Below, piece by piece: positions 6,357 to 31,113 of a stretch of DNA of 64,000 nucleotides. Every line of letters begins with the position of its first letter. The stretch's first letter is position 1. The DNA lies in NCBI RefSeq assembly GCF_054482525.1, contig NZ_CM137006.1. The stretch is one strand, 5' to 3'. Position numbers and translations under genes: made by a program. The notes below the pieces were generated by a model. The model did no database searches, was not told where the DNA came from, and saw only the letters and a list, made by a program, of their open reading frames with translations.

Positions 6357-6905
6357 TTATTGATACTGAACCTTGAAGGTCGCATCCGCATTAGCAGCAC
6401 CCGGGGTTGCAGCAGCGGTTGCAAAATAACGCGCCTGGAACGGAATGGTGTTAGTACCGTTATTCAGGGTTGTTTCTGCACTAAATGTCGCACCGTCCAG
6501 CGCCAGCGCAGCACCGGTTCTGTCCAGAATTTGCACACCAACGTTTGTTGCGCTACCTGCAGCAGAACTCTGCAGAGCCAGTACATCAGTATGCGTAGCA
6601 TCAATTGCCGTACCTAAGAAGGCAACAGCGGCTTTTGTGGCAACAGTGGTATCGCAATCATTCAGCTGAATGTTAAAACCAACAGCAGAGCTGGTTGCTC
6701 CAGCCTGCTTCAGGCTAGCGGTACGAACCTGTCCTAACTGAACGGTTTGATCAACAGAGCCTGCATCAACTGCGCAAGCGGCATTAACAACTTCCCCTTT
6801 AAAGTGAACGGTCCCACCATTTACCGTCGTAGTATCAGCCAGAGCCGCTGCGGAACTGAGGGACAGAGCCGACAAAACAACGATTGCCAGAGTTTTAATT
6901 TTCAT
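6357..6905 (-). CDS. fimA: Major type 1 fimbrial subunit FimA
   Basis: [23 protein letters not shown] signal peptide; 182 aa. The ORF-track extension into fimS was trimmed. Confidence 0.97.
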
Positions 6906-7023
6906 GCTGCTTTCCTTTAAAAAACTATTTCTAAATCGACATGGGCAGTCGTTCTGTACACTTTGTTTTGTCAACGAGTTTGACTGCCAACACTGCACAG
7001 TTTTCCCCCAAAAGATGAAACAT

Positions 7024-7337
7024 TTGGGGCCATTTTGACTCATAGAGGAAAGCATCGCGCACAAACTTTTTCAGTTTATTTGTTGGCTTGATATTCTACC
7101 GTTATCTTTATTTATAGATTTTTATATTGCATGAGGTGGTTTTTGGAGAGAAGAATGAGGAAGTTGCTTCGAGACACAGAAACGTTAGCTTTACATTTAG
7201 CGGAGGTGATGTGAAATTAATTTACAAGAGAAATAATTTACATATCAAACAGTTAGATGCTTTTTGTCGTTTTTTAATATTTTTATGCTTGAGAAAAAAT
7301 ACGTAACTTATTTATGATATGGACAGTTTGGCCCCAA
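7024..7337. promoter_or_regulatory. fimS: fimS invertible phase-variation switch (314 bp), in phase-OFF orientation
   Basis: 9-bp inverted repeats ttggggcca (7024-7032) and tggccccaa (7329-7337). The internal promoter reads on the + strand, away from fimA. Confidence 0.9.
7289..7318 (+). promoter_or_regulatory. fimA promoter inside fimS, currently pointing toward fimE (OFF)
   Basis: -35 ttgaga (7289-7294), 18-nt spacer, -10 tatgat (7313-7318), adjacent to the inverted repeat at 7329. Confidence 0.75.
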
Positions 7338-7384
7338 TTGTCTTGTATTTATTTGTTTTTTAACTTTATTATCAATGAGTTAAA

Positions 7385-7981
7385 TCAAACCTCTTCTCTT
7401 TTTAATTTTTCGTTTATGAGATTATTTCTTTCCCATAATCCGGCAAAACGAGCAGCATTACTGGCGGTATAACGCACAGTATGGCGAATATTTCGATGCC
7501 CGAGATAATCCTGAATTAAACGGGTATCGGCACCACGCTCCGCCAGTTCATAACCACAAGCATGCCTTAACATATGAGGATGAGTCTGCGTTACGGTTCC
7601 AGCTTCAATACCGGCATCGCGAATAATGCGATAGGCCTGCTGGCGAGAAAGCCGACTCCCGCGGCGAGAAATAAATATAGCGTCGGTCCGGTCAGCGCCT
7701 TTCCAGTTAGCACGTTCCTGGGTCCAGCGTTCCACGGCTTCACGCTCATCAAAACGTAACGGGTGAACGGTAGAAAATCCGTTCTTCAGTCGGCGAATAT
7801 TTATTCGACCTTCATTAAGGTCAAGGTCCTGATAATGCAGATCAAGCAGTTCACTAATACGCATCCCATGCCGATATGCCAACAGAATAAGACAATAATC
7901 TCTGGCTCCCGTTGCCCCGTAACAAACCGCCTGCATCATGGCCTGAACTTCTTTACCGGTAAGATAACGACGTTTACTCAC
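7385..7981 (-). CDS. fimE: Tyrosine recombinase FimE (ON-to-OFF switching)
   Basis: 198 aa; MSKRRYLTGKEVQAMMQAV...; HxLRH and RHTVRYT recombinase motifs. Confidence 0.97.
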   Translation of the reverse strand: MSKRRYLTGKEVQAMMQAVCYGATGARDYCLILLAYRHGMRISELLDLHYQDLDLNEGRINIRRLKNGFSTVHPLRFDEREAVERWTQERANWKGADRTDAIFISRRGSRLSRQQAYRIIRDAGIEAGTVTQTHPHMLRHACGYELAERGADTRLIQDYLGHRNIRHTVRYTASNAARFAGLWERNNLINEKLKREEV

Positions 7982-8459
7982 AATAGTAGTACTCCTAACT
8001 GAGATATATTTGAATGAATACCTATAGGAAACCTCAATCGGTCAAAATTAGCCCAATAGATAAAAAGATAACCACACACGAAGTGATGTGGCTATCAGTC
8101 AATTACATTAAATATCATACAAAAATAAAATATCACTGATGTGACAACATCTATTTTCATTGATTTGATTCAATATAACAATAGATTGCAGTGGATTAAC
8201 TTCCCAGTTGCTTAAAAAATAAAGAAAAAAGTATGAAAACAGGAGAATTTAAGTGATGTGTAAATTTATGAATGATTTTGTTTATTTATTTTGAAGAACA
8301 CAAACCATTGTATTTTGTATGGATATGGTTAACTTAATGTTTATTATGATAATTAAGAATCACACTTACAATAACATCAATTAATAAATGGTTAATCATT
8401 TTTGATATATCGTAAGAATAATGTGTTTTTTAACACCATCCCTGGTATCCCATCTATCT

Positions 8460-9062
8460 CTATAAAACAGCGTGACGCTGTCTCCCTCTAGCTCTATCCC
8501 AGATGCCGTAAAAACGCCCTGCATTGCTGGCGGTATACCAGACTGTATGACGAATATTGCGATGCCCAAGATAATCCTGGATAAGTCGCGTATCTATTCC
8601 CATATTCGCCAAAGCAAAACCACACGAATGGCGTAACATGTGCGGATGAATCTCCAGTGATAACCCAGCATTACCACCAGAAGTCGAGATAATATGGTAA
8701 AACTGTTGCCGAGAAAGCGGATTCCCCTTACGTGATAAAAATACCCACTCGCTCTCAGCATGCGGATACGAAGTACGGATACTCAACCAGTTTTTTAAAG
8801 CCTGAACTTCTTTGTTCAATAGCGGGTGCGTTGTTGAAAAGCCTTTTTTTAATCGATGGATATATATACACTTTGCCTTAAGATCAATATCCGAAATCCT
8901 CAATCGACAAATTTCACTCGCCCGGAAACCATGAATAAAACAAAGCAAAGTCAGACAATAATTACGTGCTGCATGAGGCCCGGTATTTGCTGCTTTAAGG
9001 AGTGACTCGATTTCACTATGGGTCAGGAAGTTCCTTTTTTTGTTATCAGCCTTATTCTTCAT
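8460..9062 (-). CDS. fimB: Tyrosine recombinase FimB
   Basis: Internal start MKNKADNKKRNFLTHSEIESLL gives 200 aa; paralog of FimE. Confidence 0.96.
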   Translation of the reverse strand: MKNKADNKKRNFLTHSEIESLLKAANTGPHAARNYCLTLLCFIHGFRASEICRLRISDIDLKAKCIYIHRLKKGFSTTHPLLNKEVQALKNWLSIRTSYPHAESEWVFLSRKGNPLSRQQFYHIISTSGGNAGLSLEIHPHMLRHSCGFALANMGIDTRLIQDYLGHRNIRHTVWYTASNAGRFYGIWDRARGRQRHAVL

Positions 9063-10077
9063 CGTTTTTCCCTTATAATTACAGACGCGCACTAGCTGTG
9101 CTGGGTTAGCAATAATCCAACATTTTAATCCTGATTATGTTTATAAAAGCGAACGTTTGCTTAATAACTAACGTAAGTGGACCAGTTCTTCAGAGTGAAC
9201 TTAAATGGAGTGGCAACAGTTACTTATAATAACGTTGCCATACAAACGCTATGCTCCTGCATGCTATGTACCTTTATATATTTATCAATCTGATACGAAT
9301 CTAATAATAACCCTCATCATTAATGCAACTAATCTTATCTATATATCATGTGATATGTTCTGTAACAAGTAAAATCAACATAAAAAATTCAGCAAAATTT
9401 AATATTCGTTCAACTAGCCGTCTCACATATGACATTATTAGTCAACTCCATTTGCCACAAAATGGCTATTTCATGGAACGCAGTAATTTCTTAGTGGCTA
9501 TTATCATGCTAATGCTTAGGTCCCTAGCGATTATTCCTGGCTGGTTCGTCAGTTTAGGCCATGAGATTGTTACATTCCTTTTTATCATGGAGATATGGGG
9601 GAAAGCAGGAGACGATTTTTTCATCTACATTCGTTGATAAATATGGCTTTGGTCACTAAGACTTAAACCCTCCTCAATCACAGCTGTTCGCCGGGCAATA
9701 CGGCAAACAAACTAAGTGAAACATCATCCTGAAAACACCAACATCAACAAGCCTCTCCAGATCGACTTCAGGAGTGACCAGTTACAAGCCACAAATCAGG
9801 AAACATATTTCATGGTGAGAATTATGATCAGTCTGATGGCGGGTAAACCCTTATTTTCACCCCGCTCACTGAGTTAGCTTGCAAATCTTCCCTTGTTTAG
9901 ACTCTAGATAAATCTCATATAAAACAGGCAATTAAACAAAAACCTTTGGTTTGTGACGGCCTCCACAAATGTTCGTTTAGCTTCACATGGCATCTTCTTC
10001 TTAGAAAAAGATCGACATATTTTGTGACACGAATTGCAAATCTGGTTTTGTTGTATGGATTGCGTGATTTTTGATCT

Positions 10078-14271: not shown

Positions 14272-16005
14272 ATGGAAATCATGTTACCAAAAAACACCTT
14301 ATATGACAGAGAGCAAAATGTCTTTTTTGAAAAGGTTACGGCCTTAATTGGCGAAAATGGTGCTGGTAAGTCCTCGATTTTACAATCCGTATTTATTAAC
14401 TGTTTAACAAAAAAATATCTACCAGAAACAAAGGTTGTTTGTTTTTCTTCTGGACAAAATGAGAAATACTCAACGTACTTCTCTGATTATCTTTCTCATG
14501 AAAGGCAAGCAAATAGAGGTCTTAACTTAGATTGTTGTTATTACGATAAATCATGGTCAAAGTTACTAATATTCATATCCACAATTTGTAAATCAAATGG
14601 TCTTGTTAGAAATTTTTTATGTGAGAAAGGCTATATTGATGTATCAGATGATAAAAATGATGATATATCAAGCAAGCTTACATTGACGGTCCGAGTAAAT
14701 TCGGCTTACGTTAATCGAGTAAAAATGGCATTAGCACAAGAAGAACAAGGTATTGAAAATACTTTAAGGTATTCAGCTTATCATAGGACTTTAGAAAGTT
14801 TCATTAATAATATTGTTAATGCTGATTATGATTTCGAGTCTCCACTTGAAGCTCAAGAGATCTTGCTAACTCATTCAAATTTTTTCAATCCATCATTTGA
14901 GGAAGCAGAAGATTCCTTTTTTGATCCTATCATAACATTTTTCACTCAAGCAGCAGATAATGATTACTTTATAATAAAACCATCATTACAGCTAGAGTTT
15001 AAAAATAATATCGAACTGAATGATATTAGTGATGGGGAATATCAAGTACTCTTTTTATACTCTCTGCTTGATATTTTTGATAGTCCTAATACTTTATTCT
15101 TATTAGATGAGATAGATTCCCATTTACATTACAAGAATATTGAGCTCTTATGGCATCGACTACATAGTATTAATGGTTATGCGATAACAACCACCCATCT
15201 ATTAGACTCAATTACAGCTACTGATAATGATTTTAAAAACTTAAAGATTGTTGATAAAGGAAAAATAAAAGAAGATGATAAAATAAAAACTATAATAGAA
15301 CGTTTATCTGTCTTGACAAGAATATCAGACGTACAGTTCGAAGTGTGTCGTAAACTAGAAAACATAGTATTGATGGATGATTATAATGATTGGACTATTT
15401 TTTATGCCTTAGCAAAGAAAAAAGGACTTGATGTATCAAAGTTAGATGGCCTCCATGCAATAAAACAGTCCTCTGGTTACGATAATTTAAATCAAGAGTT
15501 CGCAAAACCAAAAATAGAGTGGATTAATTCGCTTTCAAATGTAAATACTGATAAGAAAGTCAAAAAAATATTCATGATCTGCGACAAAGATGAGGCTCCA
15601 ATTACCTATCAGAAAGATGGAGTTCAAGTCAATGGAAGTGAATATTCAAAACATATAGCGAAGTTAGAAAATAAAAACAAAAATAAAATATATCTCCTTG
15701 CTTGGAAAAGAAGAGAAATAAAAAACTACTTATTATCTTATACGGCATTGTCTCATCATGGATTTATCGGGCAAATAAACAATGGTGATCTGCCGGCTAA
15801 CAGTTATTTAAAAGAAAACAATCCTGGAGATAATTCAGCAATTAGCCGGCTTAATGTAAAACATTGCATCACAAAAATAATTGATTCTGATGGTATAGGA
15901 TTAGATATCTCAAAACTTTACTCATATATAGAACTTATACCACCTGCTGAGATCAGTGAAGATATAGTGAACATGTACAATTTTTTGGTGGAGAAATTAA
16001 AATGA
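14272..16005 (+). CDS. ABC-type ATPase fused to a C-terminal DUF4435/Toprim-like domain (OLD / PARIS AriA-AriB-like architecture)
   Basis: Walker A GENGAGKSS; signature-like SDGEYQ; Walker B LFLLDEIDSHLH; H-loop TTTH. C-terminal IVLMDDYNDW..FY, MICDKDE and KRREIKNYLL resemble DUF4435. Very AT-rich. Confidence 0.75.
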   Translation: MEIMLPKNTLYDREQNVFFEKVTALIGENGAGKSSILQSVFINCLTKKYLPETKVVCFSSGQNEKYSTYFSDYLSHERQANRGLNLDCCYYDKSWSKLLIFISTICKSNGLVRNFLCEKGYIDVSDDKNDDISSKLTLTVRVNSAYVNRVKMALAQEEQGIENTLRYSAYHRTLESFINNIVNADYDFESPLEAQEILLTHSNFFNPSFEEAEDSFFDPIITFFTQAADNDYFIIKPSLQLEFKNNIELNDISDGEYQVLFLYSLLDIFDSPNTLFLLDEIDSHLHYKNIELLWHRLHSINGYAITTTHLLDSITATDNDFKNLKIVDKGKIKEDDKIKTIIERLSVLTRISDVQFEVCRKLENIVLMDDYNDWTIFYALAKKKGLDVSKLDGLHAIKQSSGYDNLNQEFAKPKIEWINSLSNVNTDKKVKKIFMICDKDEAPITYQKDGVQVNGSEYSKHIAKLENKNKNKIYLLAWKRREIKNYLLSYTALSHHGFIGQINNGDLPANSYLKENNPGDNSAISRLNVKHCITKIIDSDGIGLDISKLYSYIELIPPAEISEDIVNMYNFLVEKLK

Positions 16006-17909
16006 ACACCTCTTTATTTGAAGATCTACTTACACTAATCAAGAAAAAGAGTTCGATAAGAAATACAGAGCAAGCAGTAGAGTTAATTTCATTATTTATT
16101 TTTTTACATTATATAAAATTATATCTTTATGAAAATGATAAAAGATTTTCAGATATAAAAAACATATCAAGCAACAACATTAATGAAATTAAATATTATT
16201 ACCAGCAACTATATGAAAGTTTTATTTTCTCGATAGATATAAAAAATATAAACCACGACATGCTTGAAAACCTCAGGAGTAAGATAGGTTTTTTAATTAA
16301 TAACATCAATGACCATGAAATAATTAAATATATAGATTATTCTATTTCGCAGATACATTCACTTACAGAATTCCATCAATATGCAAATTCTTATCAATCT
16401 TTAATTCTTAGGATGGTTAATGAATCGGGTCGTTCAGGTGAATATGTTACTCCATCTGCTTTAGTTCAGCTCATGGTTGAAATGTTATCACCTACAGATG
16501 GCACATCAATCTACGACCCAGCATGTGGAACTGGGGGTTTATTAATAGAGTCAGCACGATATATTAAAGGCAACAGTTTAAACAAAAACTTAAATTTAAA
16601 TTATTCCCTTATTGGTAATGACACATCATCATTTGCCTGTCTAATCTCAATTGTTAACCTTTTAATCAATAAAGAATTTAATTTTGAAATAATACTAAAA
16701 GATAGCTTAGATATAAATTATAAGAATAAAAAATATGACTTTGTTTTAACTAACCCACCATTTGGGAAAAAGAGCTGTTGGGATAATATTCATATTGACA
16801 CACATTATAAAGGACCTAATCTAGACTATTACTTCCTGGAGCATGTTATTGACTCTCTCGCTGTTAATGGCAAAGCAGCCATGATATTACCAGAGCGTTT
16901 TTTATATGATGTGAGTGAAGAGTGCATCACTCTTAAAGATAAGATCTTCCAAAATTATAATTTAGATTGTATTTTATCTATACCGTCAGGTGCATTGCTT
17001 CCTTACACTGCAGTAAAATTATGTATTCTTTTTATAAGTAATTCTGGCCCAACAGATAGAATATTTTTCTACAATTTAAATAATGGTGAAAAATACTCAC
17101 GTACAAATATTATAAAATTCGATGATTTTATAGATTTTTTAGAGTCAGCAAAAAATAGAACAATAACTGAACACTCCTGGATTATCAATATTAGTGATAC
17201 ACCTTCATCTTATAACTTACTCTTAAAAGATAAAGAGCGAAACTCATATGAGTTTCTTAGTGATTCTATAGTTAACATTGAACAGACAATACGTAATAAT
17301 GAATTATTACTAACAGAGTTGTCTTTATTAAGAGAAAAAATAGCAATCTTAGAGTCAACAATAAAAAATCATTCGCATGAATATGAATTTGAGAGACTTA
17401 AAGTTGGAAATATTGCAATAGTAAAATCCGGAAATTTATTACAAAAAAACAGGCTGTTACCCACTGGACCAATTCCTGTATACGGTGGAAATGGAGTTAT
17501 TGGATATAATAATGAAGCAATGGAAAATGGTGAAAATATTATTATTGGTAAGGTCGGAGCTCTTTGCGGAAACGTTCGGTATGTTCAAGGTGATATTTGG
17601 GTGACAAATAACTCATTAATTATTAAGAATTATTCACCAAATAAAGTTTTAACACCCTACCTTGCAAAATTATTATCTACTTTAAACTTAAGAAGGCTCG
17701 CCGTTGGTACCGCTCAGCAATATTTAACCACGACACAAATAAAAAATGTAGAAGTTAGTATTCCACCTTTAACGACCCAGTATAAATTAAATATTTGGCT
17801 TGATGAGTTAGATAATACGCTTGAACAATATAATAATCTCATTGAAAAAATAATGAATGATAAGCGAGAACTTAAAGAGAATTTGTATAAAGGTCTTTTA
17901 ATAGAATAG
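16002..17909 (+). CDS. N6-adenine DNA methyltransferase (HsdM-like) fused to a single HsdS-type target recognition domain
   Basis: Motif I DPACGTGGLLIE and motif IV TNPPFGKK. C-terminal ~200 aa resembles one HsdS TRD plus a conserved helix (GKVGALCGNV, WVTNNSLII, SIPPLTTQ). ATGA start/stop overlap with the upstream gene. Confidence 0.8.
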   Translation: MNTSLFEDLLTLIKKKSSIRNTEQAVELISLFIFLHYIKLYLYENDKRFSDIKNISSNNINEIKYYYQQLYESFIFSIDIKNINHDMLENLRSKIGFLINNINDHEIIKYIDYSISQIHSLTEFHQYANSYQSLILRMVNESGRSGEYVTPSALVQLMVEMLSPTDGTSIYDPACGTGGLLIESARYIKGNSLNKNLNLNYSLIGNDTSSFACLISIVNLLINKEFNFEIILKDSLDINYKNKKYDFVLTNPPFGKKSCWDNIHIDTHYKGPNLDYYFLEHVIDSLAVNGKAAMILPERFLYDVSEECITLKDKIFQNYNLDCILSIPSGALLPYTAVKLCILFISNSGPTDRIFFYNLNNGEKYSRTNIIKFDDFIDFLESAKNRTITEHSWIINISDTPSSYNLLLKDKERNSYEFLSDSIVNIEQTIRNNELLLTELSLLREKIAILESTIKNHSHEYEFERLKVGNIAIVKSGNLLQKNRLLPTGPIPVYGGNGVIGYNNEAMENGENIIIGKVGALCGNVRYVQGDIWVTNNSLIIKNYSPNKVLTPYLAKLLSTLNLRRLAVGTAQQYLTTTQIKNVEVSIPPLTTQYKLNIWLDELDNTLEQYNNLIEKIMNDKRELKENLYKGLLIE

Positions 17910-17989: not shown

Positions 17990-20900
17990 TTAATAATGCT
18001 CCTCAATATACCCATACGCCTTCTGGAACAACTCTTTATCTTTCCCTAGTCCAAACTGGGCCAAGGTCAGCAAAAGCGCCTTTTGGATTTCGCGCGGGCC
18101 ACTGTTAGAATTTTGCCAGCCATCAAAGCGGGTAGCTTTCACAATTTTATCAATTTGCTCTACAACATCACCGATTAACTTAGGGGTAGTTTCCGGACGT
18201 GTTTCGAGGAAAAGCTTAGTCAACGCCTGTTTATTATCAGCTTCAGTTACTGGACGCTCGCCCGTTTCGCGCTCGGCTTGAACGGTATCTTTCGCTGCAT
18301 CCAACAGGCCTTTCAACCAGTCAATGGCCTTGATAACACCAGCTTCATAGTCCTGACGCAGTTTTTCAAGGCGCTCGCCCAATGCCACAAATTTAGGATC
18401 ATGACTGCCGCGCAAACGTCCCATAAGATCAATCTCCAGGCGTTTAGCACGTTGTTCCTGCTCTTTAGCGGTCAGGGTAAAAATAGCGTGCTCGTCCATG
18501 ACCAACTCGTCAATATCATCGCGAATACGATTGATATCAGTATGCTCATGGATCATCTTGATTGTTTCGGGGCCAAGGGCAGCCCAAACAAGCGCACCTG
18601 TCTGCCCTACCGGACGCACCGATTCATAAATTTGCGCCAGCCATTTATAGTCCTGACGATAAGGGGTCAAAAAAGGGTCTGGGTTGATAGCTGACCATAA
18701 CTTGGATAACACACCAAAGCTGGCAGCGAATTCATCGCGCTTCTCGTTGGTCGGCAGGCATTCCTGCGCGGCCATAATACCTTCAAAACCAGCTATGGAC
18801 CGATCCACACCAGGGAAGAAGGACAAACATTTATTCAGTTGTAACGGCAATAGCTCTTTAAATGCCTCAATTCCCTCTACAACTCCTTCAATTTCTTCAG
18901 GGTTATAGGCCAGAGCGGTACGCAGATTTTCGAAAACGCCGAGGTAGTCGATAATTAATCCCATGTCCTTGCGTACAGTATCGGTTTCGTACAGCCGGTT
19001 AGTTCGGCACATGGCCTGCAGAAGGGTATGATCGCGTAGAGGCTTATCGAGGTACATGCAGTAGCAAATCGGGGCATCAAAGCCCGTAAGCAGCTTGGCG
19101 GTTACGATAATAAGCTGTAATGGATATTCAGGATCTTTAAAGCACTCAATTAGATCCTTTTGCACCTGCTCTTCGGCATCGATGTGCTGCCAGCGTTCAA
19201 AATCGACTTGTTTGACAGGCAGCTCCAACTCATCATGCCATTTAAGCCAATCCTTGTTGAGCTTGTCTTTTTTGCCACCCTCTTCAACTTTAATCGGAGC
19301 CTGGTCAACGTTCATAACCACTTCAACTGCATCAAAACCAAGCTTTTCACCGAGCAAATAATACATCTGCACACAGGCTTCGCGATCGTATACCACAACC
19401 ATGCCTTTCATCTTTTTCGGCATAACATGGTTGGTAAAATGCTCAGCAATATCATTACTCACCGCAGCCATACGTCTGGGAGATTTCAGCATAATAGCCA
19501 GCTTGCCGGCACGTCTGGACAATGCTGCTTTTTCTTCTTCATCCAGGTTGTTTTCGGTAGCCAGTTGCTCGAACTCTTCATTGATGGCATCACGATCCAC
19601 TCGGAGTTCAGCCAGCCGAGGTTCGAACTTCACCGGGTTAGTTGCGCCATCCCGGATCGACTGCTTATAGCTATAGCGGCTCATATAGCGACCTGGATCT
19701 TCTTCGGCACCGAACAATTTGAACGTATTACGATCAATGCCAGAAATCGGAGTACCAGTCAGGCCATAGAAGTGGGCATTGGGCAACGCCCAGCGCATTT
19801 TCTCGCCTAATCCCCCTTCCTGTGTACGGTGAGCTTCGTCAACCAACACAATGATATTGTCCCGGTTGTTCAGGCCATTAGGGTTGCTATCGTCAATTTC
19901 GATATCTTTAAATTTAAAGATGGTGGTGATTAAAATGCCACGGCTGTCTTGTTCAATGTATTCACCCAACTTTTTGCAGCTTTGCACTTTAATCAGATTC
20001 TTAACGTCGGCTCCACCAAAGGTCTCGTTAATTTGGCTGTCCAGATCTCGCCGGTCCACAACGATAAGTACCGTCGGGTTTTTTAACGCATTATCGGCAC
20101 GTAGCATTTTGGCGGCGTAAAGCATCAACAAGGATTTACCCGATCCCTGGAAATGCCAAATAAGACCTTTTTTTGGATAGCCTCTGCGAACACGCTCAAC
20201 AATTTGTTTTGCAGCTTCAAATTGCGGATAACGCGGCAAGATTTTAACGCGTTTAGGTGGAGTATTTTTGCCCGTTTTGACGGTTGAAAATAATGCAAAA
20301 GATTCCAGTAACTGCAATAAGGTTTGCGGATTTAACAAACTCTCACAGCTATTGAGTACCGATGCCAGACCCGGCAAAATTTCATCACGAAGCTCAGTAT
20401 TATGCCAGGGTCCCCAGTCTTTAACTCGGGCATTAATGGCTCCATAGGCAAAGGTTTTACCTTCGCTGGCAAAGCACAGCAAGTTAGGTACAAAGAAAGA
20501 TTCAACATTTTTCCAGTAGTACTTTTTGCCACCCATGAAATCGGCAGCACCGTCTTGCCAGGTCACGCTGGGGCGTGTTGCGGTTTTAACTTCGCCTACT
20601 ACCAGTGGCATGCCGTTCACATAAAGAACAATATCAAAATAGACTTCAGTGGCCGCGATATAGTGAACCTGCTGCGCCACTACAAAGTGGTTGTTCTCTA
20701 TATTGTCAAAATCAATCAGATTGATGGTGATATGGTCGCCATTCTTACCAAAAGGCAAGGTTTTGTCGGCCATCAACCATTCCTGGAAGTTTTCATTGGC
20801 CTTTACCAAGCCGGTATGGCGGGCTTCTAAAACCACTCCTCGCAGTTTGTAAATGACCTCATCGGCATAGTCAGGCTGTCTGCCGATATCAGGGTTTAAC

Positions 20901-21052
20901 GAACAAAGCGCGTCTTTTAGCCACTCATCAACGAATATATCCTGCGCTTGTTTAGGCAGGTTTTCACCGTGGCAGTAAGTCCACTTGACTCCGCTTAAAC
21001 CTTTTAAACGGTCGATAATTCCATTTTCTGTGACGGTTTGTTCGTTAAACAT
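17990..21052 (-). CDS. hsdR: Type I restriction enzyme R subunit HsdR
   Basis: 1020 aa from MFNEQTV. PD-(D/E)xK-like DIVLYVNGMPLVVGEVK; helicase motifs QGSGKS and VDEAHRTQ. The start lies 1 nt after the hsdS stop. Confidence 0.93.
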   Translation of the reverse strand: MFNEQTVTENGIIDRLKGLSGVKWTYCHGENLPKQAQDIFVDEWLKDALCSLNPDIGRQPDYADEVIYKLRGVVLEARHTGLVKANENFQEWLMADKTLPFGKNGDHITINLIDFDNIENNHFVVAQQVHYIAATEVYFDIVLYVNGMPLVVGEVKTATRPSVTWQDGAADFMGGKKYYWKNVESFFVPNLLCFASEGKTFAYGAINARVKDWGPWHNTELRDEILPGLASVLNSCESLLNPQTLLQLLESFALFSTVKTGKNTPPKRVKILPRYPQFEAAKQIVERVRRGYPKKGLIWHFQGSGKSLLMLYAAKMLRADNALKNPTVLIVVDRRDLDSQINETFGGADVKNLIKVQSCKKLGEYIEQDSRGILITTIFKFKDIEIDDSNPNGLNNRDNIIVLVDEAHRTQEGGLGEKMRWALPNAHFYGLTGTPISGIDRNTFKLFGAEEDPGRYMSRYSYKQSIRDGATNPVKFEPRLAELRVDRDAINEEFEQLATENNLDEEEKAALSRRAGKLAIMLKSPRRMAAVSNDIAEHFTNHVMPKKMKGMVVVYDREACVQMYYLLGEKLGFDAVEVVMNVDQAPIKVEEGGKKDKLNKDWLKWHDELELPVKQVDFERWQHIDAEEQVQKDLIECFKDPEYPLQLIIVTAKLLTGFDAPICYCMYLDKPLRDHTLLQAMCRTNRLYETDTVRKDMGLIIDYLGVFENLRTALAYNPEEIEGVVEGIEAFKELLPLQLNKCLSFFPGVDRSIAGFEGIMAAQECLPTNEKRDEFAASFGVLSKLWSAINPDPFLTPYRQDYKWLAQIYESVRPVGQTGALVWAALGPETIKMIHEHTDINRIRDDIDELVMDEHAIFTLTAKEQEQRAKRLEIDLMGRLRGSHDPKFVALGERLEKLRQDYEAGVIKAIDWLKGLLDAAKDTVQAERETGERPVTEADNKQALTKLFLETRPETTPKLIGDVVEQIDKIVKATRFDGWQNSNSGPREIQKALLLTLAQFGLGKDKELFQKAYGYIEEHY

Positions 21053-21053
21053 T

Positions 21054-22241
21054 TTATATTTCCTTATCAATCATAGCTTGGCGCAGTTGAATAATTTTCC
21101 CCAAGGATTCATTGTGCCTATAAATATTCTCATACGAACACTTAAACGTATTAATGATTGATGCTTGAATATCGAAGGGAGGAATAGGAATTTGAATTTT
21201 TAAAAAGTTATCTTTATTTATTTTCTTCATACTTCCGCTAGTTCCAGCAGCAATACCTTGAATAGCTCGACGGCCATATGGAGACATCAGATAGTACATT
21301 AAAAACTCTTTTTTAATAAATTTTTCGTCAACAGCCAATCTCCACATCGTGTCTGGGAAAATCGTATTCCCATTGCCAGTCGATCCTTTATATTTTCCAA
21401 CTAAACCAACCAACTCCGCTGTATTAGAACGAGAGATTAACAAATCACCATCATTGCATGTTTTTCCTTTTAAAAAATGATCTTCTGTAATATTTTTTAA
21501 AGTAGTTTCTCTGAATCCTGATTTCGACAAACTATTTAGGTTCAGGACATAGTACCCAGTCCCGACTGCGGTTTCAACAGGAGAATATCCCCCTTCTGGA
21601 GAATCAATTAAAACATCTTTAATAGAACCAAAAGTCCATCCAACCGGAAGAGGAACACATTTATTCTCCCTCGAATCAAAGTAGTTATCAAAAGTCCGTA
21701 GACCAATAGCATATAATAATCTTTTAGCTGCTTTGAGAGCACTTAAATATAGAAGTTCTTTCTTTGCTAACGAATCAAAGATTATTAATGACGAGTATTG
21801 CTGTTCAATGCTCGGTATATTAACTTCTAGTTTATTTAAATCACTCCATTTTATTCGCGATGATAGCGAGCCGGCGGAATTTGCAATCACCTTTTCCATA
21901 AAAGAGGTTGATTGCATCAAGTGGGGTAAGTACCCATCCAATAAGTAGTTGTTTTTCCTTGGTTTAATTACCATTGCATCAGCAGAGCAAATACCATTAA
22001 TAGGGCTCACCGACACCCTTTTTAAATATGTATTTCGTCTACTAAAAATTATTTCGCCACACTTTACCTTAAAGGCTTGTGTTTTCAATTCAACGTCAGC
22101 CCCCCAATCATGAACATAAAAATAACCAGATTTCAAATGTTCCAACCCAATAAAATGCTTAGCATCGTCGCTTGTTGGGGAGATTCTAACCATAACCTGT
22201 TCAGCAAGATCACCAAATGTAACATTTCTTTTATTATTCAT
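21054..22241 (-). CDS. hsdS: Type I R-M specificity subunit HsdS (two TRDs)
   Basis: 395 aa from MNNKRNVTFGDL. Two TRD-like halves separated by a helical spacer. AT-rich. Overlaps the hsdM stop. Confidence 0.88.
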   Translation of the reverse strand: MNNKRNVTFGDLAEQVMVRISPTSDDAKHFIGLEHLKSGYFYVHDWGADVELKTQAFKVKCGEIIFSRRNTYLKRVSVSPINGICSADAMVIKPRKNNYLLDGYLPHLMQSTSFMEKVIANSAGSLSSRIKWSDLNKLEVNIPSIEQQYSSLIIFDSLAKKELLYLSALKAAKRLLYAIGLRTFDNYFDSRENKCVPLPVGWTFGSIKDVLIDSPEGGYSPVETAVGTGYYVLNLNSLSKSGFRETTLKNITEDHFLKGKTCNDGDLLISRSNTAELVGLVGKYKGSTGNGNTIFPDTMWRLAVDEKFIKKEFLMYYLMSPYGRRAIQGIAAGTSGSMKKINKDNFLKIQIPIPPFDIQASIINTFKCSYENIYRHNESLGKIIQLRQAMIDKEI

Positions 22242-23739
22242 TATTATATTTCTCTCTATCAATTTCATAGCCAATGCTATCCAAGCTATCAAACAATACC
22301 TTGATATTTCTTTTGAGTTTTACGCTACTGACTTTCCATGATTCGATAGCATGCTGAATATCATTCATTTTGACATTGTTTTGAGATTTCACATAAAGTG
22401 AAATCGATAAATTATAGAAATTTTCTTTAATAGCTTCGATATCCACTAAAGCGGTTATGTCGTTTTTTTTCTCCGGATTAAAATAAGCCTCGCATAATAC
22501 TTCCAAATCATCATCAGATAGGCGACTATGGGCACGTTCACGGGTAACATACTCAACCCCGTTGATAAACAAAACCTTATTTTTGCGTTCAGCAGGTTTA
22601 TTGCAATTAAGCACCACCAAGCAAGATTCCATCGGCGAGTTGTAAAACAGATTTGGTCCCAAACCAATCACCGCTTCGATTATGTCGGATTCAATCACCT
22701 GTTTACGAATGGCTTGTTCAGAATCACGGAACAGTACACCATGCGGCCAGAGCATGGCAGCACGACCGGTGTCGGGTTTTAAACTTTTGATTATATGGGT
22801 ATAAAACGCATAATCAGCACAACCTTGTGGAGGCACGCCATAGAGATTACGCCCATAGGGATCGGCTGCAAACTTGTCACGATTCCATTTCTTAATGGAG
22901 TATGGTGGGTTAGCAAAAATCACATCAAACTGCTTGAGCCGATCGTTTTCAATAAACTTTGGCTCAGCCAAAGTATCACCACGCAGCACATCAAACTCTT
23001 CAATATCATGCAGGAACATATTCATACGAGCAATAGCGGAAGTCAGCAGGTTCACTTCCTGACCATAAAGGTGCACAGAGCGCCACTCTTCTCCTCTTGC
23101 ACGAAGATCCATCACTGCATTTAGCAACATCCCTCCAGTGCCACACGTTGGATCATAGGCTGTTTCACCCGGTTTTAAGCCCATAATGCGCGTCATTAAA
23201 TGCACGACTGTTCGGTTGGTGTAGAACTCTGCTGCCGTATGACCGGAATCATCAGCGAACTTTTTAATCAGGTATTCGTAGGCCTCACCAAGATCATCCT
23301 GAGCGACAGATTTAATACCGAGCGGTATTTTACTGAAATGTTCAATCAGATCAGCCAGCAGATGATCGGGCAGGCGCTCTTTATTGGTCCACTGCGCATC
23401 ACCGAAGACGCCATGTAAACGCGGATTATTGGCTTCAATTAGTCGAAGCGCATTCTGGATCGCTTCACCAATGTTTTTACTGGTATTGCGTACCTTTTCC
23501 CAACTGGCTTCAGAGGGAATATTGAAACGGTGAAACATCGGCATGGCGGCATATTCAGCATCACCTTCATGGAGTTCCAGCGCTTCGTTATATTCTTCCA
23601 GATAGACATCTGACAGGCGTTTGTAAAACAGCAACGGGAAGATATACTGCTTGTAGTCTGATGCGTCAATTTGGCCACGAAGAAATTCGGCGGCTCCCCA
23701 GAGCAGCTCTTCCAGCTTTTTATTACTCATAGTACTCAT
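22234..23739 (-). CDS. hsdM: Type I R-M methyltransferase subunit, distal paralog (HsdM-2)
   Basis: HsdM N-terminal domain; EFYTNRTVV; DPTCGTGGML; ANPPYSIKKW. ATGA overlap with the upstream hsdM paralog. Confidence 0.9.
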   Translation of the reverse strand: MSTMSNKKLEELLWGAAEFLRGQIDASDYKQYIFPLLFYKRLSDVYLEEYNEALELHEGDAEYAAMPMFHRFNIPSEASWEKVRNTSKNIGEAIQNALRLIEANNPRLHGVFGDAQWTNKERLPDHLLADLIEHFSKIPLGIKSVAQDDLGEAYEYLIKKFADDSGHTAAEFYTNRTVVHLMTRIMGLKPGETAYDPTCGTGGMLLNAVMDLRARGEEWRSVHLYGQEVNLLTSAIARMNMFLHDIEEFDVLRGDTLAEPKFIENDRLKQFDVIFANPPYSIKKWNRDKFAADPYGRNLYGVPPQGCADYAFYTHIIKSLKPDTGRAAMLWPHGVLFRDSEQAIRKQVIESDIIEAVIGLGPNLFYNSPMESCLVVLNCNKPAERKNKVLFINGVEYVTRERAHSRLSDDDLEVLCEAYFNPEKKNDITALVDIEAIKENFYNLSISLYVKSQNNVKMNDIQHAIESWKVSSVKLKRNIKVLFDSLDSIGYEIDREKYNNE

Positions 23740-25235
23740 ACCTCGAACCCTTCTTTGATAAGCAGGGCCTCCAGCTCCTCTTCTGCTTTTTCCAGCTCAG
23801 CCAGCTTCCGTTGAAAATCTTTGAGCGCCTCTTCCACAGTGATGGTTTCTTCTTCGAGTGGCTTTTGCACATAACGAGCAATATTTAGATTGAAGTCATT
23901 TTCTTCAATCTCCTTCAGAGGAACCCAGCGTGCAACGCCTTCGATTTCTTTTGCATCTGGCCCTTGTTGCGCCTGGTCATGATAGATTTGGTATATTTCA
24001 TCGGCCTGCTTGTTGGACAGCGTATTCTGCGCACGTCCCTTGGTATAGATTTCTTCAGCATTGATGATCAATACATGATCTTTATGCGCGGCCGGACGTG
24101 ATTTACGCAGCACCAAAATACACGCAGGAATCCCAGTTCCATAGAACAGGTTGGAAGCAACACCAATAATCGCCACAATGCGATTCTCTTGCAGTAATTT
24201 GGTTCGAATTGCCCCCTCTGCGCCGCCACGAAACAGCACACCATGAGGTAATACGACTGCCATACGTCCATTGTCGTTAAGTGAAGCAAACATATGCTGC
24301 ACCCAGGCAAAATCACCATTTGTTTTAGGCGCCAGGCCATATTGCTTACGGCCATAGGGATCGTTCGACCACAGATCGTATCCCCATTCTTTTAAGCTAA
24401 ACGGTGGGTTGGCAACAACGCAGTCAAAGGTTTCTAAACGATCGCTTTTTAAAAATTTAGGTTCGCGTAAAGTATCCCCTCGGACAATATCGAAATCTTC
24501 CTGTCCATGCAGGAACAGATTCATACGCGCAATAGCTTCCGTCGTTAAGTTCTTTTCCTGACCCTTGATTTTTAGTAAACGCGGATCACCACCATTTTCT
24601 TTTACATGGTGGATGGTCTCAAGCAGCATACCACCGGTACCACAGGCGGGATCGTAGACACTCTCACCGGCTTTTGGATCAAGAATGTTAACCATCAAAC
24701 GAACGATAGTTCGTGGGGTATAGAACTCACCTGCTTTCTTATTGGCTTTGTCTGCAAAGCGTTTGATCAGATACTCGTATGCGCGCCCCATATCATCGTC
24801 ACGGACACTAGAAACGCCAAGGTTCACCTTATTGAAGTGATTGAGTAACGTAGCCAGTAACTCATCAGAAAGGCGTTCTTTATTGGTCCAGCTGGCATCG
24901 CCAAAAATGCCATGCAGTTTAGGGTTTGCCAGTTCTATACCACGGAAGGACTCTTTTAAAGCCTGACCGATGTCCTTGGTCTCAGCGAAAACATCGCGCC
25001 AGTGGCAATTTTCAGGTATCTGAATACGGTGAAACATCTTGCCCTTGGCAAGCTCTGCATCCCCAACGCTCTCCATCGCATCAGCAAATTCTTCGTCATA
25101 CACGTCACAAATGCGCTTGAAGAACAAGATGGGGAAAATGTACGTTTTGTAATCTGACGCATCAATGGGCCCTGTAATAATATGGGCTGCATGCCATAGA
25201 TGGGCCTCGAGATCTTTTAGGTTAATCAGTGTCAT
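23736..25235 (-). CDS. hsdM: Type I R-M methyltransferase subunit, proximal paralog (HsdM-1)
   Basis: 499 aa from MTLINLKDLEAHLWHAA; EFYTPRTIV; DPACGTGGML; ANPPFSLKEW; C-terminal coiled coil. The ORF-track extension was trimmed. Confidence 0.9.
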   Translation of the reverse strand: MTLINLKDLEAHLWHAAHIITGPIDASDYKTYIFPILFFKRICDVYDEEFADAMESVGDAELAKGKMFHRIQIPENCHWRDVFAETKDIGQALKESFRGIELANPKLHGIFGDASWTNKERLSDELLATLLNHFNKVNLGVSSVRDDDMGRAYEYLIKRFADKANKKAGEFYTPRTIVRLMVNILDPKAGESVYDPACGTGGMLLETIHHVKENGGDPRLLKIKGQEKNLTTEAIARMNLFLHGQEDFDIVRGDTLREPKFLKSDRLETFDCVVANPPFSLKEWGYDLWSNDPYGRKQYGLAPKTNGDFAWVQHMFASLNDNGRMAVVLPHGVLFRGGAEGAIRTKLLQENRIVAIIGVASNLFYGTGIPACILVLRKSRPAAHKDHVLIINAEEIYTKGRAQNTLSNKQADEIYQIYHDQAQQGPDAKEIEGVARWVPLKEIEENDFNLNIARYVQKPLEEETITVEEALKDFQRKLAELEKAEEELEALLIKEGFEV

Positions 25236-25478
25236 TGTTGTCTCTTTTCGATCCTGCAGTGCTTGAACTCTCAGCAACTCATGGATTTCACAGTAAAAAA
25301 GCAAGCAAAGCGATTCCACAACCACCTGAGCGTTCAATACGTATGACGCCTTTACCCAAGTTGCTTAAATCAAGGAAATTGCCAGAGATAATACTCTGGC
25401 ATCAGAATGATACCAAGTTGAAGGGCTGATTTCCGCATCAATACCTTGTGGTAATAGGGGATTACTCTTTTACCCTTA

Positions 25479-26480: not shown

Positions 26481-27476
26481 TCATGCAGGCAAATACGTTT
26501 TCTTAAGCGGCACCAACAGCTTAGTTTCAATATCCACCTGCTCATAGTTTTCCACTAACGCGCGTACCAAATCGTCCAGCGTCCATAGCGTCAACGGGAT
26601 TGTAGAACGATCGGCCTCATAACGCGCATCCTTGCTGAATCCGCCGGTACTAACATACAGCCCGCGATCGTCTTTATGACGGCCACCGATAAAGCTACGG
26701 ATTTGCTGGCTGCTCATCTGTTCCCGCCGGTGCTTCACCTCAACAATAATGCGCGGATTTTCAAACCCAAATCCGTCAGGCGAAGCAATGATGTCTTTCC
26801 CACGGTCAGCACCCGCAGGCGATACCTGAGTTTTATATCCCATGCTGCGTAACACGCCAGCGACCAGATTCTGCATCTCATCCCAGTCGAGACGGTTGAT
26901 ACGATCCTTGATGCCTTCAAAAGCGATCATTTCCATGTCGCGCAGAGGATTAGAAACGACCTCATCCTCTTCACCTGAAACAGGTACTTCCGGCACGATA
27001 TCTGAGACAGGCTTATTGCCCTGCACTAATTCATTCACAGCAAAATCAGGCACCTGAAAAACTGTCAGCGTTGAACCAAGGGTGTTTCTGGTTGCATCAC
27101 TCAGACTATCGCGCTTAATCTCTTCCGCATTCCACTTCACTTTACGGGCGATGCCCATGCCATCTTCAAGCCACTCGGCATGAAACTCAAAATCTGACGC
27201 TATTTTCCCTATTAAATAGGTCCGATTAGAAGGTGAATAAGTGATAGCCCAGTCGCCTTTCTGCATTTCATTCACAAAGCGCCAGACCTGAGAAGCTCCA
27301 GAACGAACTGTGCCTGGCTTAGTCTGTGGCTCAAGCTCCTGATACCGGGTAAACAACTGCTCTCTTGAGCATCCAGGTTTCACATAGGGAGCGAGCTGCG
27401 ACCAACCAATTGCAACAACCTGTTTGTCTCTGAAGTCGTCGTACAATTTTCCGCCATCACCGCGGATCATCCACAT
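26481..27476 (-). CDS. Mrr-like (type IV) restriction endonuclease with N-terminal uncharacterised domain
   Basis: C-terminal Mrr_cat-like block (RGKDIIAS...IIVEVKHRRE..STGGFSKDA). Start chosen at MWMIRGDGGKLY; the ORF-track extension overlaps the upstream gene. Confidence 0.8.
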   Translation of the reverse strand: MWMIRGDGGKLYDDFRDKQVVAIGWSQLAPYVKPGCSREQLFTRYQELEPQTKPGTVRSGASQVWRFVNEMQKGDWAITYSPSNRTYLIGKIASDFEFHAEWLEDGMGIARKVKWNAEEIKRDSLSDATRNTLGSTLTVFQVPDFAVNELVQGNKPVSDIVPEVPVSGEEDEVVSNPLRDMEMIAFEGIKDRINRLDWDEMQNLVAGVLRSMGYKTQVSPAGADRGKDIIASPDGFGFENPRIIVEVKHRREQMSSQQIRSFIGGRHKDDRGLYVSTGGFSKDARYEADRSTIPLTLWTLDDLVRALVENYEQVDIETKLLVPLKKTYLPA

Positions 27477-27597: not shown

Positions 27598-30500
27598 CTA
27601 AACCTGACGCCTCTCAAGACTATTATAAATAGCCTCAATTTCACCTTTCAGGTTATCACCAGAGTAAACCATCGATGTATCGTATCGTTCATATCGCGCT
27701 TCCCGTGTCGCACTAAACCAGTTGAACGATCCCACGCATAGCAAACCATCATCACCAATAACAATTTTGCTATGAACACGGTTTACCAGCTTTGTAGCAA
27801 TACCCAGCGCATTCAGTTTCTCCAGCGCCGCTTTAAGGTTCTGCTGCTTCTCTTTTCGCTTCTCAAAATCTTTATGTTCAGTGTTGTAGCTTCTGTCAGT
27901 GACTATCGTGACGTTAATACCACGTGAACACGCCGCAATCATGGAATCAAGAAAACCCGTTTGCTCCAGCTTTTGCCAGGTCAGCCATGGAGAAACTATC
28001 GTGATGTGTTTATCGGTATTTTCAAACGTCTGATTCAGGAAATTATCATGCTGCTCCACACCATGGAGTGTGTAGATTTTGGTCTCGGAAGTTTTTAAAT
28101 CCTTACGCTCTTTATAATCAAAAGAGAGCGCATTCTTCTCGGACTCAAAGAGATATTTTGCCAGTAATCCCCGCGGAGATGAGGGAGGCTGGATCTCAAA
28201 CAGATCCATATCGCCGAAGACCAGGAAGCTATCCTTCGCACGGGAGACTGCAACATTCAGCATGCTGTTATCGCTATCAATAAACCCGCCATCTTCATGT
28301 TTTGAATAGACTGGCGAGAATATAACAATCGCTCTTTCCGCTCCCTGAAGAGAGTGCACGGTGCCCACGGTGAGCGACTTTTCATTCGCGCCCGTACTGA
28401 TACCTTGTTTACCCAGCGCCTGTTTGATAGTGGATACCTGCGCGCTAAAAGGCGTCACGATACCGACAACTTCATGAAGCGATTTGCCGTAATGCGCTTC
28501 AATATTTTGCTGGTTCTCTGCCAACCAGGCCGCTATCGTTTCAGCCTCAAGCAAATTATATCTACTTCCACTACTTGCCAGCTCTCCTTTACCATCAATA
28601 TGGAGATAACCCATTGCGGGCATTAAATTGCTCTCTTCGCGCCCTCTTTTAGGCAACAACTTACCGTGATAGCAGAGCGTATTACAGTATCCAATAATAT
28701 TATCGAAGCACCGGCGGTGTTCATATAGGTACATACCACGAGCCAGTTCGGGATCATATTGATAGCGCGAAGCAAACTGCGCTATTTTCATAACGCTGCC
28801 AGATGCGGCACTTTTACCAAGGTCTGCGATTGCCGTATATTTCTCGGTAATCTCTTCTTGCGTACTGCCAGACAGAATTTTTTCCGCAAGCATGTTACCG
28901 ACATCAATCGCGGGAGCAATACTCCATATTGGCGGGATCTGCTCCGTATCGCCAATCACTAATGCCTTCTTAGCTAATGCAAACGAGGCAGCAGCCACTT
29001 CAGGAAGCACCTGCCCGGCTTCATCGACAATGAGTAAATCGGCAAAATCATACAAATAACTTTTCTCGAATTTACGTTGTCCTTTGTGCTCACTTATCTG
29101 CATATTGCCGGGCAGCATATAGCATGTCATCACCACACATGGAGTGAGTTTCATTCGACGTTGCCAACGGGCGGTTACCCCTTTAGCGCCTTTTTTCTTC
29201 TTCTCTTCCTGCAGATCATCAATTCTGGCCATATCCATCAGCCAACGACCTTCCCAGTAGTGAGTCGTCAGTAAAAATGCAGGGAAGCGAATCTGCGTAT
29301 CAGCCAGTTCATCGGCCTGTGAGAAGCTCAGTTCCTCGTCGCCCTCATACCCTAAATCAAATGCCAGCCTCTGCCACTCCTGAACCGCCTGCTGTTCTTT
29401 AAGAACGATTTCATGGGCGGAGTCAATCTGCTGCCGGTATGTTGTTTGCTCGCGCTCAGCGGAATTGAGCAGCCCATCAATATTACGTTCGATAGTTTCA
29501 GGATCAGACCACTGATTTCCTGCAATCAGCGCGCCTAATTTATCTTCGAGAAACAACTGTATTTGGTACTGTCGCTTACTACGAACCGCTGGGAGCCAGG
29601 AAAATAATGAATAGATCAGTGATTCACCGGCGCGATATTTTTTCCATTCCGTTTTAGCACTCTTCAGTAGAGTGACTTTTTGTTCTTGTCCGGAAAGTAA
29701 TTTATTTAAATTATCGAGATATTGCTCAATGTCGTTAGCAATAAGCTCACGCGCAGCCCGTACCTGGCTTAACGTTTGCCATGTTGCGTTCAGTCTTATC
29801 AGTTGCTCGGATTTTGCTGCCAACTGACCATGCAGGAGTTCAATGACCTTTTCAGGGGATGAACACTCTTTTTCAGGAAAAGCTGCCTTAGCTTTCTCGA
29901 GATAAAACAGCAGTGCATCCTCTACATACTCTTTTGACTCAACCTGGTTGAAGAAATCTTCAGTTTGATATTTTTTGGCTGCCTCAGCTTTACGAGTGCT
30001 TGAGGGAAAATAAGCGCCGAAGCTTTTCAGCTCTGGCAACCATCGTCCGGCCATCGCACCTGAACCTTGCGAAAAGTCTTTCCCGAATGCCTCAATAATG
30101 TTCGTTACAGCCTGGTTATTCGTTGAAGTCGCGATAATAACCGGAGGCTCAGATTTTTCGAGAGCTGCTCTGGCCCACTGCGTGGCGATGATAGAAAGCA
30201 CCAGCGTGGTTTTTCCGGTTCCCGGAGGTCCATTAACAGCAAGGATATCGCCATGTCTTGCATCCAGAAAATGGCTTAAGGCATCGCGCTGAGCCTTTGC
30301 CAGCGGAAACTTATCTCCGGAGTGTCCAAGCCTGTCGCTGAATTTTGCTCCTGGAGCCAGCAAAGACTCTGCAGCATGAACCTCTCGCGAGGCGAAGCGA
30401 TTGAAGAGCGGCACATCCTTCTTGCAAACAAGCAGGTGATCATAAAGAGAAAGGATATGGAAACTGGCACCGCCAGATTGCGCCGTTTTAACAATATAAC

Positions 30501-31113
30501 CGTGCTCAGCGAGTTCATATTGCTCAGGATTTTTAATCCAGTCGCCGGCAACGTTCTTCAGCAGCCTCTCTGAATCATCCAGATATTGATGCCACTCCTG
30601 CTGCAAGGCTGCATATCGTGCTTCCCGTTCTTCATCCGTTTCGGCAGTCTTATCAATGCTGTCATCAAAGTTGATAGAGAACGAGGTATGGATTGTCTTG
30701 TATTTGTCATACTGCCCAATCTCACCAATCGAAAATGCTCCTTTTGGCAAAGGTTCAAGCAGGTCTCTGGGAATGGAGGTCGCTGGCGTCGGATATAAAA
30801 AACCCTCACGGCTGAGCAAGGCTGGCGTCACTAGCGGGGTAACAATATCAGGTGCGCCTGCGGAACGGTCCTTACCATGCTGCAGTAACCGAAAATAAAC
30901 TTTTGGGCGCAAGACGACATCGACCGTTTCGACATCGTCTTTTTCTCCCTCAAAAAATTTACTGACAATCGCTTCGTCAAGACGTCCCGCCGCTATCCCA
31001 TGCCAGTGAGTGAAATTTTTGGCGTCTTTCCGTTCAAAACTGCCCTTTCCTGACTCAGCATCCGCAAGCGAGTTGCGCCAGTATGAGGCAAACCCTAAAG
31101 CATTTTCATCCAT
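27598..31113 (-). CDS. SF1 (DNA2/NAM7/COG1112-like) helicase with C-terminal PLD-family nuclease domain; type II Mokosh-like architecture
   Basis: Walker [10 protein letters not shown]; LIVDEAGQV; [17 protein letters not shown]-terminal single HKD motif HSKIVIGD plus GSFNW. 1171 aa. Confidence 0.85.

Follow-up and report, generated by a model that had tools for sequence, protein, structure and literature searches.

The window analysed here, a 64,000-nucleotide stretch of contig NZ_CM137006.1 (RefSeq assembly GCF_054482525.1), carries on its minus strand, between positions 17990 and 25235, a Type I restriction-modification (R-M) operon with two hsdM genes. The open reading frame (ORF) list and a direct reading of the junctions give four co-directional, closely packed genes in the order M1-M2-S-R. 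The first, hsdM1 (23736-25235), encodes a protein of 499 aa from its ATG and hsdM2 (22234-23739) one of 501 aa; both match Pfam HsdM_N and N6_Mtase, and motif IV is NPPF in M1, the predicted N6-methyladenine (m6A)-forming subunit, and NPPY in M2, predicted to form N4-methylcytosine (m4C). They are followed by hsdS (21054-22241; 395 aa), which matches Pfam Methylase_S in two stretches and is composed of two target recognition domains (TRDs) alternating with two conserved regions (CRs), in the order TRD1-CR1-TRD2-CR2. With approximate boundaries, TRD1 covers residues 1-145 (21807-22241), is of the cytosine type and is predicted to position M2, while TRD2 covers residues 196-352 (21186-21656), is of the adenine type and is predicted to position M1. 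The last gene, hsdR (17990-21052; 1020 aa from ATG), encodes the restriction/translocase subunit with Pfam HSDR_N, SWI2_SNF2/ResIII and T1R_D3-like domains. As argued below, this operon is very probably an intact member of the m4C/m6A two-methyltransferase subgroup of Type I systems whose prototype is PacII.

The hsdM1/hsdM2 junction reads GGTATGAGTACTATG and contains an ATGA overlap, hsdM2 and hsdS overlap by 8 nt, and a single base lies between the hsdS stop codon and the hsdR ATG. This is the four-gene layout, with the same junctions, that had been described in an initial annotation of the locus, and the ORF coordinates bear it out. The same four genes are annotated by RefSeq/PGAP in the identical sequence of Escherichia coli PCN033, where S is named 'restriction endonuclease subunit S'. 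The protein accessions are WP_000172638.1 for M1, WP_001376160.1 for M2, WP_001060853.1 for S and WP_000481474.1 for R. PGAP starts hsdM2 at Met4 (position 23730), which leaves a 6-nt gap after hsdM1 and no ATGA overlap; tight coupling of the two hsdM genes holds with either start. The ATG start of hsdM1 is fixed by its first 52 residues, which are identical to those of PacII M1. A longer hsdM1 version beginning at a TTG at 25337 in the ORF list is spurious, the ATG version having the PacII M1 N-terminus, and the longer TTG-initiated versions of hsdS and hsdR are unsupported. Upstream of hsdM1, a candidate sigma-70 promoter (TTGGTA-17-TATTAT, 25388-25416, minus strand) agrees with the consensus at 9/12 positions, a weak match; the promoter scan returned 26 such sites where 16 ± 4 would be expected for the region, and the assignment to hsdM1 is suggestive only.

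Over their full length M1 and M2 are 46% identical (66% positives; BLASTP, E = 5e-159). Identity is highest in the N-terminal domain (55%), lower in the catalytic domain (47.5%) and lowest in the C-terminal tail (21.7%). Both motif sets are intact, DPACGTGGML/NPPF/EFYTPRT in M1 and DPTCGTGGML/NPPY/EFYTNRT in M2, and the initial impression of two copies about half identical, each with its full catalytic motifs, was accurate. The tails had been called unrelated; they are indeed divergent, but with 21.7% identity they are better described as strongly diverged, each M subunit having a tail specific to its class. Neither PADLOC nor NCBIfam has a model that would separate M1 from M2, and both databases return generic Type I names only.

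The other two subunits are built as in canonical Type I systems, HsdS with its two Methylase_S stretches and HsdR at full length with an HSDR_N nuclease and superfamily 2 (SF2) motor domains. HsdR scores 475 bits against the NCBIfam hsdR model TIGR00348 (cut-off 284), its translation contains Walker A (GSGKS) and DEAH (VDEAH) motifs, and the R genes that adjoin orthologous M1-M2-S genes in other genera share 81-98% identity with it. All four are real, intact and conserved genes, well beyond anything that chance would give; anatomy and intactness were both read directly from the locus.

Morgan et al. (2016; PMC5100572) described a subgroup of Type I systems whose enzyme, M1M2S, contains two M subunits that resemble each other without being the same. 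In this subgroup M1 (NPPF) produces m6A while M2 (NPPY) produces m4C on the opposite strand; M1 lies 5′ of M2, M2 lies 5′ of S and is usually adjacent to it, R lies 3′ of S, and the two M subunits of one system share 45-55% identity (PMC5100572). Ten systems have been characterized, all of which carry m4C in one half-site, and APPA mutagenesis in four systems showed the NPPY subunit to be responsible for it; cloned members restricted phage lambda 25-250-fold and are classical R-M systems (PMC5100572). Mutagenesis and sequencing of methylomes established the mechanism (PMC5100572), as did the crystal structures of the PacII M1M2S-DNA complex (7vru and 7vs4; Zhu et al. 2022; PMC9613975). The window operon shows the NPPF/NPPY pair, the gene order, the degree of M1/M2 identity, the cytosine pocket, the TRD1 family and the residues for heterotrimer formation and asymmetric catalysis, which are the features we used to assign membership.

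The strongest evidence comes from the comparison with PacII, the prototype from Pseudomonas alcaligenes NEB 585 (target C(m4C)C-N5-RTTGY). When all PDB sequences are searched, window M1 scores 984 bits with PacII M1 (7vru_A; 85.2% identity over 499 ungapped residues) and 475 bits with PacII M2 (7vru_B), while window M2 has 86.0% ungapped identity to PacII M2 (983 bits) and scores 451 bits with PacII M1. Cross-class scores are thus about half the same-class scores, and each window M is closer to its PacII counterpart than to its own partner. Scores with the solved canonical single-M subunits (EcoR124I, EcoKI and others) reach only 54-225 bits. Judged by these alignments, each window M is the orthologue of a different PacII subunit.

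Conservation extends to the residues mutated or described for PacII in PMC9613975, of which we checked 12 in M1 and 22 in M2. All 12 are conserved in M1, including D25, E170, F171, R252, N276-P-P-F279, S280, R336, T367 and R401. In M2 20 of the 22 are kept, the exceptions being R11 and D19 of the alpha1-helix (PacII numbering), which are T3 and E11 here. The aromatic cage of M2 is present as F172, P279, Y280 and F365 (PacII F180/P287/Y288/F373), together with N277 (PacII N285), and R21 and R402 correspond to the conserved PacII R29 and R410. In PacII numbering, the conserved positions include the M1-M2 interface residues (M1 D25 and R252; M2 D33/D36/K38 and R130), the minor-groove arginines (M1 R401, M2 R410) and the R29-E170 coupling pair. 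The cytosine-pocket loop of window M2 reads N367-S-P-M-E371 (PacII 375-379), a loop that has been proposed to shrink the pocket for cytosine (PMC5100572); window M1 has G-T-G-I-P.

The HsdS subunit points in the same direction. Its residues 6-179 align with residues 12-180 of PacII S, which contain the CCC-reading TRD1 (E = 2e-27, 35.5% identity), so that by sequence the window TRD1 is homologous to the cytosine-reading TRD1 of PacII. The window TRD2 is unrelated to that of PacII.

How general this association is can be seen from a survey in which an alignment of S homologues was scanned against GTDB species genomes, yielding 80 loci from other species that share an S relative. The scan patterns fell in TRD2, and the set mixes loci sharing only the adenine-type TRD with loci sharing both TRDs, so it serves as a natural control. 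In 49 of the 80 loci a TRD1-like domain was accompanied by an NPPY M2. The 26 loci that lack the cytosine-type TRD1 each have a single M of the NPPF type. TRD1 without a detected M2 occurred in three loci, all on truncated contigs, and M2 without a detected TRD1 in two, both frameshifted by appearance. The co-occurrence of M2 with a cytosine-type TRD1 is thus directly observed, while the TRD2 family of the window S is found in both single-M and two-M systems. Genes were ordered M1, M2, S in 44/44 surveyed loci, with R after S in 39/41.

Residue counts from an alignment of 105 M subunits (loci L002-L081) separate the classes. Motif IV has Y in all 46 M2 proteins and F in the 59 others (39/39 M1 and 20/20 single-M subunits), EFYT-N-R occurs in 45 of 46 M2 proteins and EFYT-P-R in all other M proteins, and the pocket loop is N-S-P-M in 46/46 M2 and G-T-(G/A)-(L/I) in M1. 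The residue R29 of PacII M2 was described by Zhu et al. (2022; PMC9613975) as conserved in M2-type and not in M1-type subunits. Among the 105 aligned M subunits this column does not discriminate M1 from M2, R being present in 32/39 M1 and 19/20 single-M subunits; we left the R29 equivalent out of the features used to assign membership. A T occupies this column only in the M1 proteins nearest to those of PacII and E. coli, window M1 among them.

The survey hosts belong to the Gammaproteobacteria, Betaproteobacteria, Actinomycetota, Planctomycetota, Acidobacteriota and Chloroflexota. In addition, clustering at 90% identity gives more than 120 groups of M2-type proteins that are at least 84% identical to window M2, with Vibrio, Klebsiella, Morganella, Shewanella and Pseudomonas among their sources. 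Two tandem hsdM genes are a routine and widespread arrangement. The initial view that no characterized Type I family is known to have it is wrong, the subgroup having been catalogued in REBASE with more than 300 two-M systems, about 2.5% of Type I systems, by 2016 (PMC5100572). The very features singled out at the time, namely NPPF/NPPY, EFYTPRT/EFYTNRT, half identity and diverged tails, are hallmarks of the subgroup. In three Pseudomonas spp. loci (L005, L008 and L010, at about 6360-9188) M2 and S are fused in one ORF of about 930 aa; such an M2-S fusion is also reported for Dac11109IV (Morgan et al., PMC5100572) and is recurrent in Pseudomonas.

The mechanism that we propose for the operon follows that of PacII; we infer the methylation chemistry, the order of assembly and the restriction activity from the close orthology of the subunits. 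HsdS would bind a bipartite, asymmetric target, its C-terminal TRD2 placing M1 (NPPF) on the adenine half-site to make m6A, and its N-terminal TRD1 placing M2 (NPPY) on the cytosine half-site of the other strand to make m4C. M1 would join S first via its C-terminal helix, and M2 would then be recruited into a four-helix bundle with the coiled coil of S, resulting in an obligate M1-M2-S heterotrimer. Together with two HsdR subunits, the complex would cut DNA that is not methylated at the target, as any Type I enzyme does. Such an order, in which M2 alone would not bind S, would explain why the tails have diverged and why neither M copy should be dispensable. The initial annotation had favoured a heteromer of M1, M2 and S in which each paralogue possibly serves one half-site or strand, which matches the PacII family (PMC5100572, PMC9613975) to which the window subunits are 85-86% identical. 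Heteromer and division by strand were correctly anticipated; what had been missed is the difference in chemistry, m6A for the NPPF-type M1 and m4C for the NPPY-type M2.

Several observations weigh against the assignment or at least soften it. Formation of m4C and restriction by this particular E. coli allele are extrapolated from PacII, TRD1 is only 35.5% identical to that of PacII with two of the three base-contact residues changed, and the start codon of hsdM2 is ambiguous between 23739 and 23730. The second point is also what speaks for a heteromer in which both subunits make m6A, M2 being no cytosine methylase and TRD1 having diverged from its PacII relative. Moreover, NPPY motifs are present in many adenine methylases. 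Against such an enzyme stands the 86% identity of M2 to PacII M2, with the cage residues F172, P279, Y280 and F365, N277 and the N-S-P-M-E loop all identical. The NPPY subunit makes m4C in the four systems tested by APPA mutagenesis, m4C is found in all ten characterized systems, and an attempt to convert PacII into an all-m6A enzyme failed (Morgan et al., PMC5100572). We consider a double-m6A enzyme quite unlikely on these grounds.

It had also been suggested that one hsdM is a spare or a decoy, for instance one resistant to anti-restriction proteins, the active enzyme being a conventional homodimeric M2S. The intactness of both copies is a state that redundancy would also allow, and nothing else specifically favours this suggestion. 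In PacII, whose subunits are 85-86% identical to those of the window, M2 does not bind S without M1 (PMC9613975), M1 and S form an M1S heterodimer (PMC9613975) that gives only partial m6A (PMC9613975, PMC5100572), and full modification requires both catalytic sites (PMC9613975, PMC5100572). Ocr and ArdA are reported as inhibitors of the PacII enzyme (PMC9613975), which also counts against a decoy. Furthermore, the two M classes are conserved separately across phyla with fixed class-specific residues, arguing for distinct functions and not for redundancy. A spare copy is accordingly very improbable. Another reading has hsdM duplicated in tandem only recently, or the operon decaying and no longer active in restriction; it could draw on the neighbouring TIR-domain gene, which is a pseudogene in this strain and indicates some decay of the island. 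However, 46% identity between M1 and M2 implies an ancient split, each copy has nearer orthologues (50-97%) in dozens of genera including Actinomycetota and Planctomycetota, and the four full-length ORFs with intact motifs are 95-100% identical across roughly 100 genomes of E. coli. Taken together, the age of the split, the intact ORFs and the conservation at the population level rule this out, leaving it hardly any probability. The m4C/m6A two-methyltransferase enzyme of the PacII type is the reading that we retain.

Within this subgroup the window operon differs from PacII in several respects. The S and R genes of PacII are flanked by its two M genes (PMC5100572) while those of the window are contiguous with them, PacII S is shorter (383 aa vs 395 aa), and, given the divergence of TRD1 and the unrelated TRD2, the window recognition sequence is expected to differ from that of PacII. 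The likeness, on the other hand, extends from the M subunits (85% and 86% identical) to the homologous cytosine-type TRD1, the presence of an HsdR gene and the catalytic, interface and DNA-contact residues. A second named relative, Sen483I of Salmonella enterica Agona SL483 (CCC-N5-RTAG), places the subgroup in the Enterobacteriaceae. Sen483I and the other characterized systems, DbaKI, PcaI, BceNI, Mma5219I, Apa12260I, Asu14238II, Pme5I and Dac11109IV, were compared with the window operon by the subgroup rules: an NPPF-type M1 5′ of an NPPY-type M2, M2 adjoining S, R downstream and 45-55% identity between M1 and M2. Extra ORFs lie between M1 and M2 in 6 of the 10 characterized systems, and there is none in the window operon. 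With the canonical enzymes EcoKI and EcoR124I (M2S1 methylase, R2M2S1 nuclease) the window shares the M architecture of HsdM_N, N6_Mtase and C-terminal helix, the TRD-CR-TRD-CR organization of S, the HSDR_N nuclease and SF2 motor of R, a clamp-like methylase and bipartite targets. In those enzymes a single hsdM product is used twice and yields m6A on both strands, whereas the window encodes two non-interchangeable M subunits with predicted m6A and m4C. Canonical Type I systems (families IA-IE) have one hsdM product in both positions on HsdS; the window has two hsdM classes.

The specificity of the window enzyme deserves a separate comment. Of the base contacts made by PacII TRD1, R75 is kept (R69), while R76 is replaced by N70 and H94 by D88. 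With two of three contact residues changed and 35.5% identity, CCC should not be taken for granted as the cytosine half-site. Contact signatures among 40 S homologues fall into at least five classes, the window having RRN-YL-R-D where PacII has KRR-YQ-K-H. The window class (R68-R69-N70...D88, aligned with PacII K74-R75-R76...H94) is common to the S homologues of Tatumella, Aliidiomarina (P0002) and Aliivibrio (P0095). Full-length HsdS homologues reach 60-68% identity in other gammaproteobacteria, and the one from Tatumella terrea (L002) reaches 94%. The m4C half-sites characterized so far are CCC, GCC and TCY. None of the ten characterized host strains was among the loci from the S-alignment scan, whose patterns fell in TRD2, and for this reason the TRD1 signature classes are not mapped to CCC, GCC or TCY. 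We tentatively suggest, at somewhat less than an even chance, that the contact class of the window TRD1 may specify an m4C half-site besides these three. If true, this would be a new specificity inside a known enzyme class.

Among solved structures, TRD2 comes closest to the C-terminal TRD of S.BsaXI (8w0p_C), a CTCC reader, with E = 1e-15 and 31.6% identity. The BsaXI specificity was kept by a TRD of 59% identity, and with one of 28% identity the chimeric S subunit failed to express (PMC9159934). We have not transferred CTCC to the window TRD2, since 31.6% identity is too low.

The 7.3-kb segment carrying the operon is 100% identical to chromosomal sequences of E. coli 19KM1776 and PCN033. 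Among 5,426 complete genomes of E. coli, 109 have the segment, without exception on the chromosome and in 88 of them with at least 80% coverage, and the operon itself is 95-100% identical across about 100 E. coli genomes. In many E. coli strains hsdS is replaced, which limits the match to 83% of the segment. Exchange of TRDs is typical of Type I systems. In E. coli RM14516 a different hsdS (L082 9067-10218; 383 aa) is found on the same M1/M2/R backbone, which is about 98% identical. Its TRD1 is 36% identical to that of the window S over the first ~150 residues, its TRD2 is unrelated, and its contact signature is KRR-YL-K-D. Judging from this second hsdS, there are probably two or more different m4C/m6A specificities among the E. 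coli strains that carry the system.

The operon is located in a defence island beside nanS/nanM/nanC and fimB. Convergent with hsdR and separated from it by an 80-bp gap is a two-gene module on the plus strand (14272-17909) with a GC content of 0.30 against about 0.47 in its neighbours. Its first gene encodes a 577-aa AAA_21/ABC-type ATPase whose best PADLOC matches, AriA, mad3 and AbiLi, are all weak; the second, whose start overlaps the ATPase stop, encodes a 635-aa N6_Mtase (NPPF) fused to a single Methylase_S TRD. The pair is also found next to the operon in E. coli PCN033 and RM14516, and the methylase-TRD fusion flanks it in Tatumella terrea (L002 12336-14273) and not in Aliidiomarina (L003). 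No curated family names this module, its NCBIfam matches lying far below cut-off; from its gene content it may be a separate ATPase-plus-methylase defence module.

On the other side of the operon a TIR-domain gene (25479 to about 26250, plus strand) diverges from hsdM1. A frameshift and an internal stop disrupt it here and also in PCN033, where PGAP lists it as a pseudogene, and it is intact in E. coli RM14516 (L082 13444-14094). Further on, positions 26481-27470 (minus strand) encode an Mrr-like 'restriction endonuclease' with a match to PDC-S02, a candidate defence family of PADLOC (E = 1.5e-80). PGAP gives it 330 aa; a longer version in the ORF list, from a GTG at 27644, would overlap the next gene. 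The latter (27598-31113, minus strand) encodes a 1171-aa helicase/PLD-type protein with a full-length match to PADLOC MkoC of Mokosh type II (1692 bits), and by this match the MkoC-like gene is an anti-phage defence gene of the same island.

The window operon is an uncharacterized allele within a Type I subgroup that is already known and for which a structure has been solved. The arrangement is not new, having been described in 2016 with a structure following in 2022, and RefSeq already annotates this operon in the complete genomes of about 100 E. coli strains. Literature searches for E. coli methylomes brought up nothing specific to this two-M system. Such a system, predicted to add m4C besides m6A, is present in about 2% of complete E. 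coli genomes, which is of relevance for reading E. coli methylomes, for transformation barriers in strains such as PCN033 and for cataloguing the specificities of this enzyme family.

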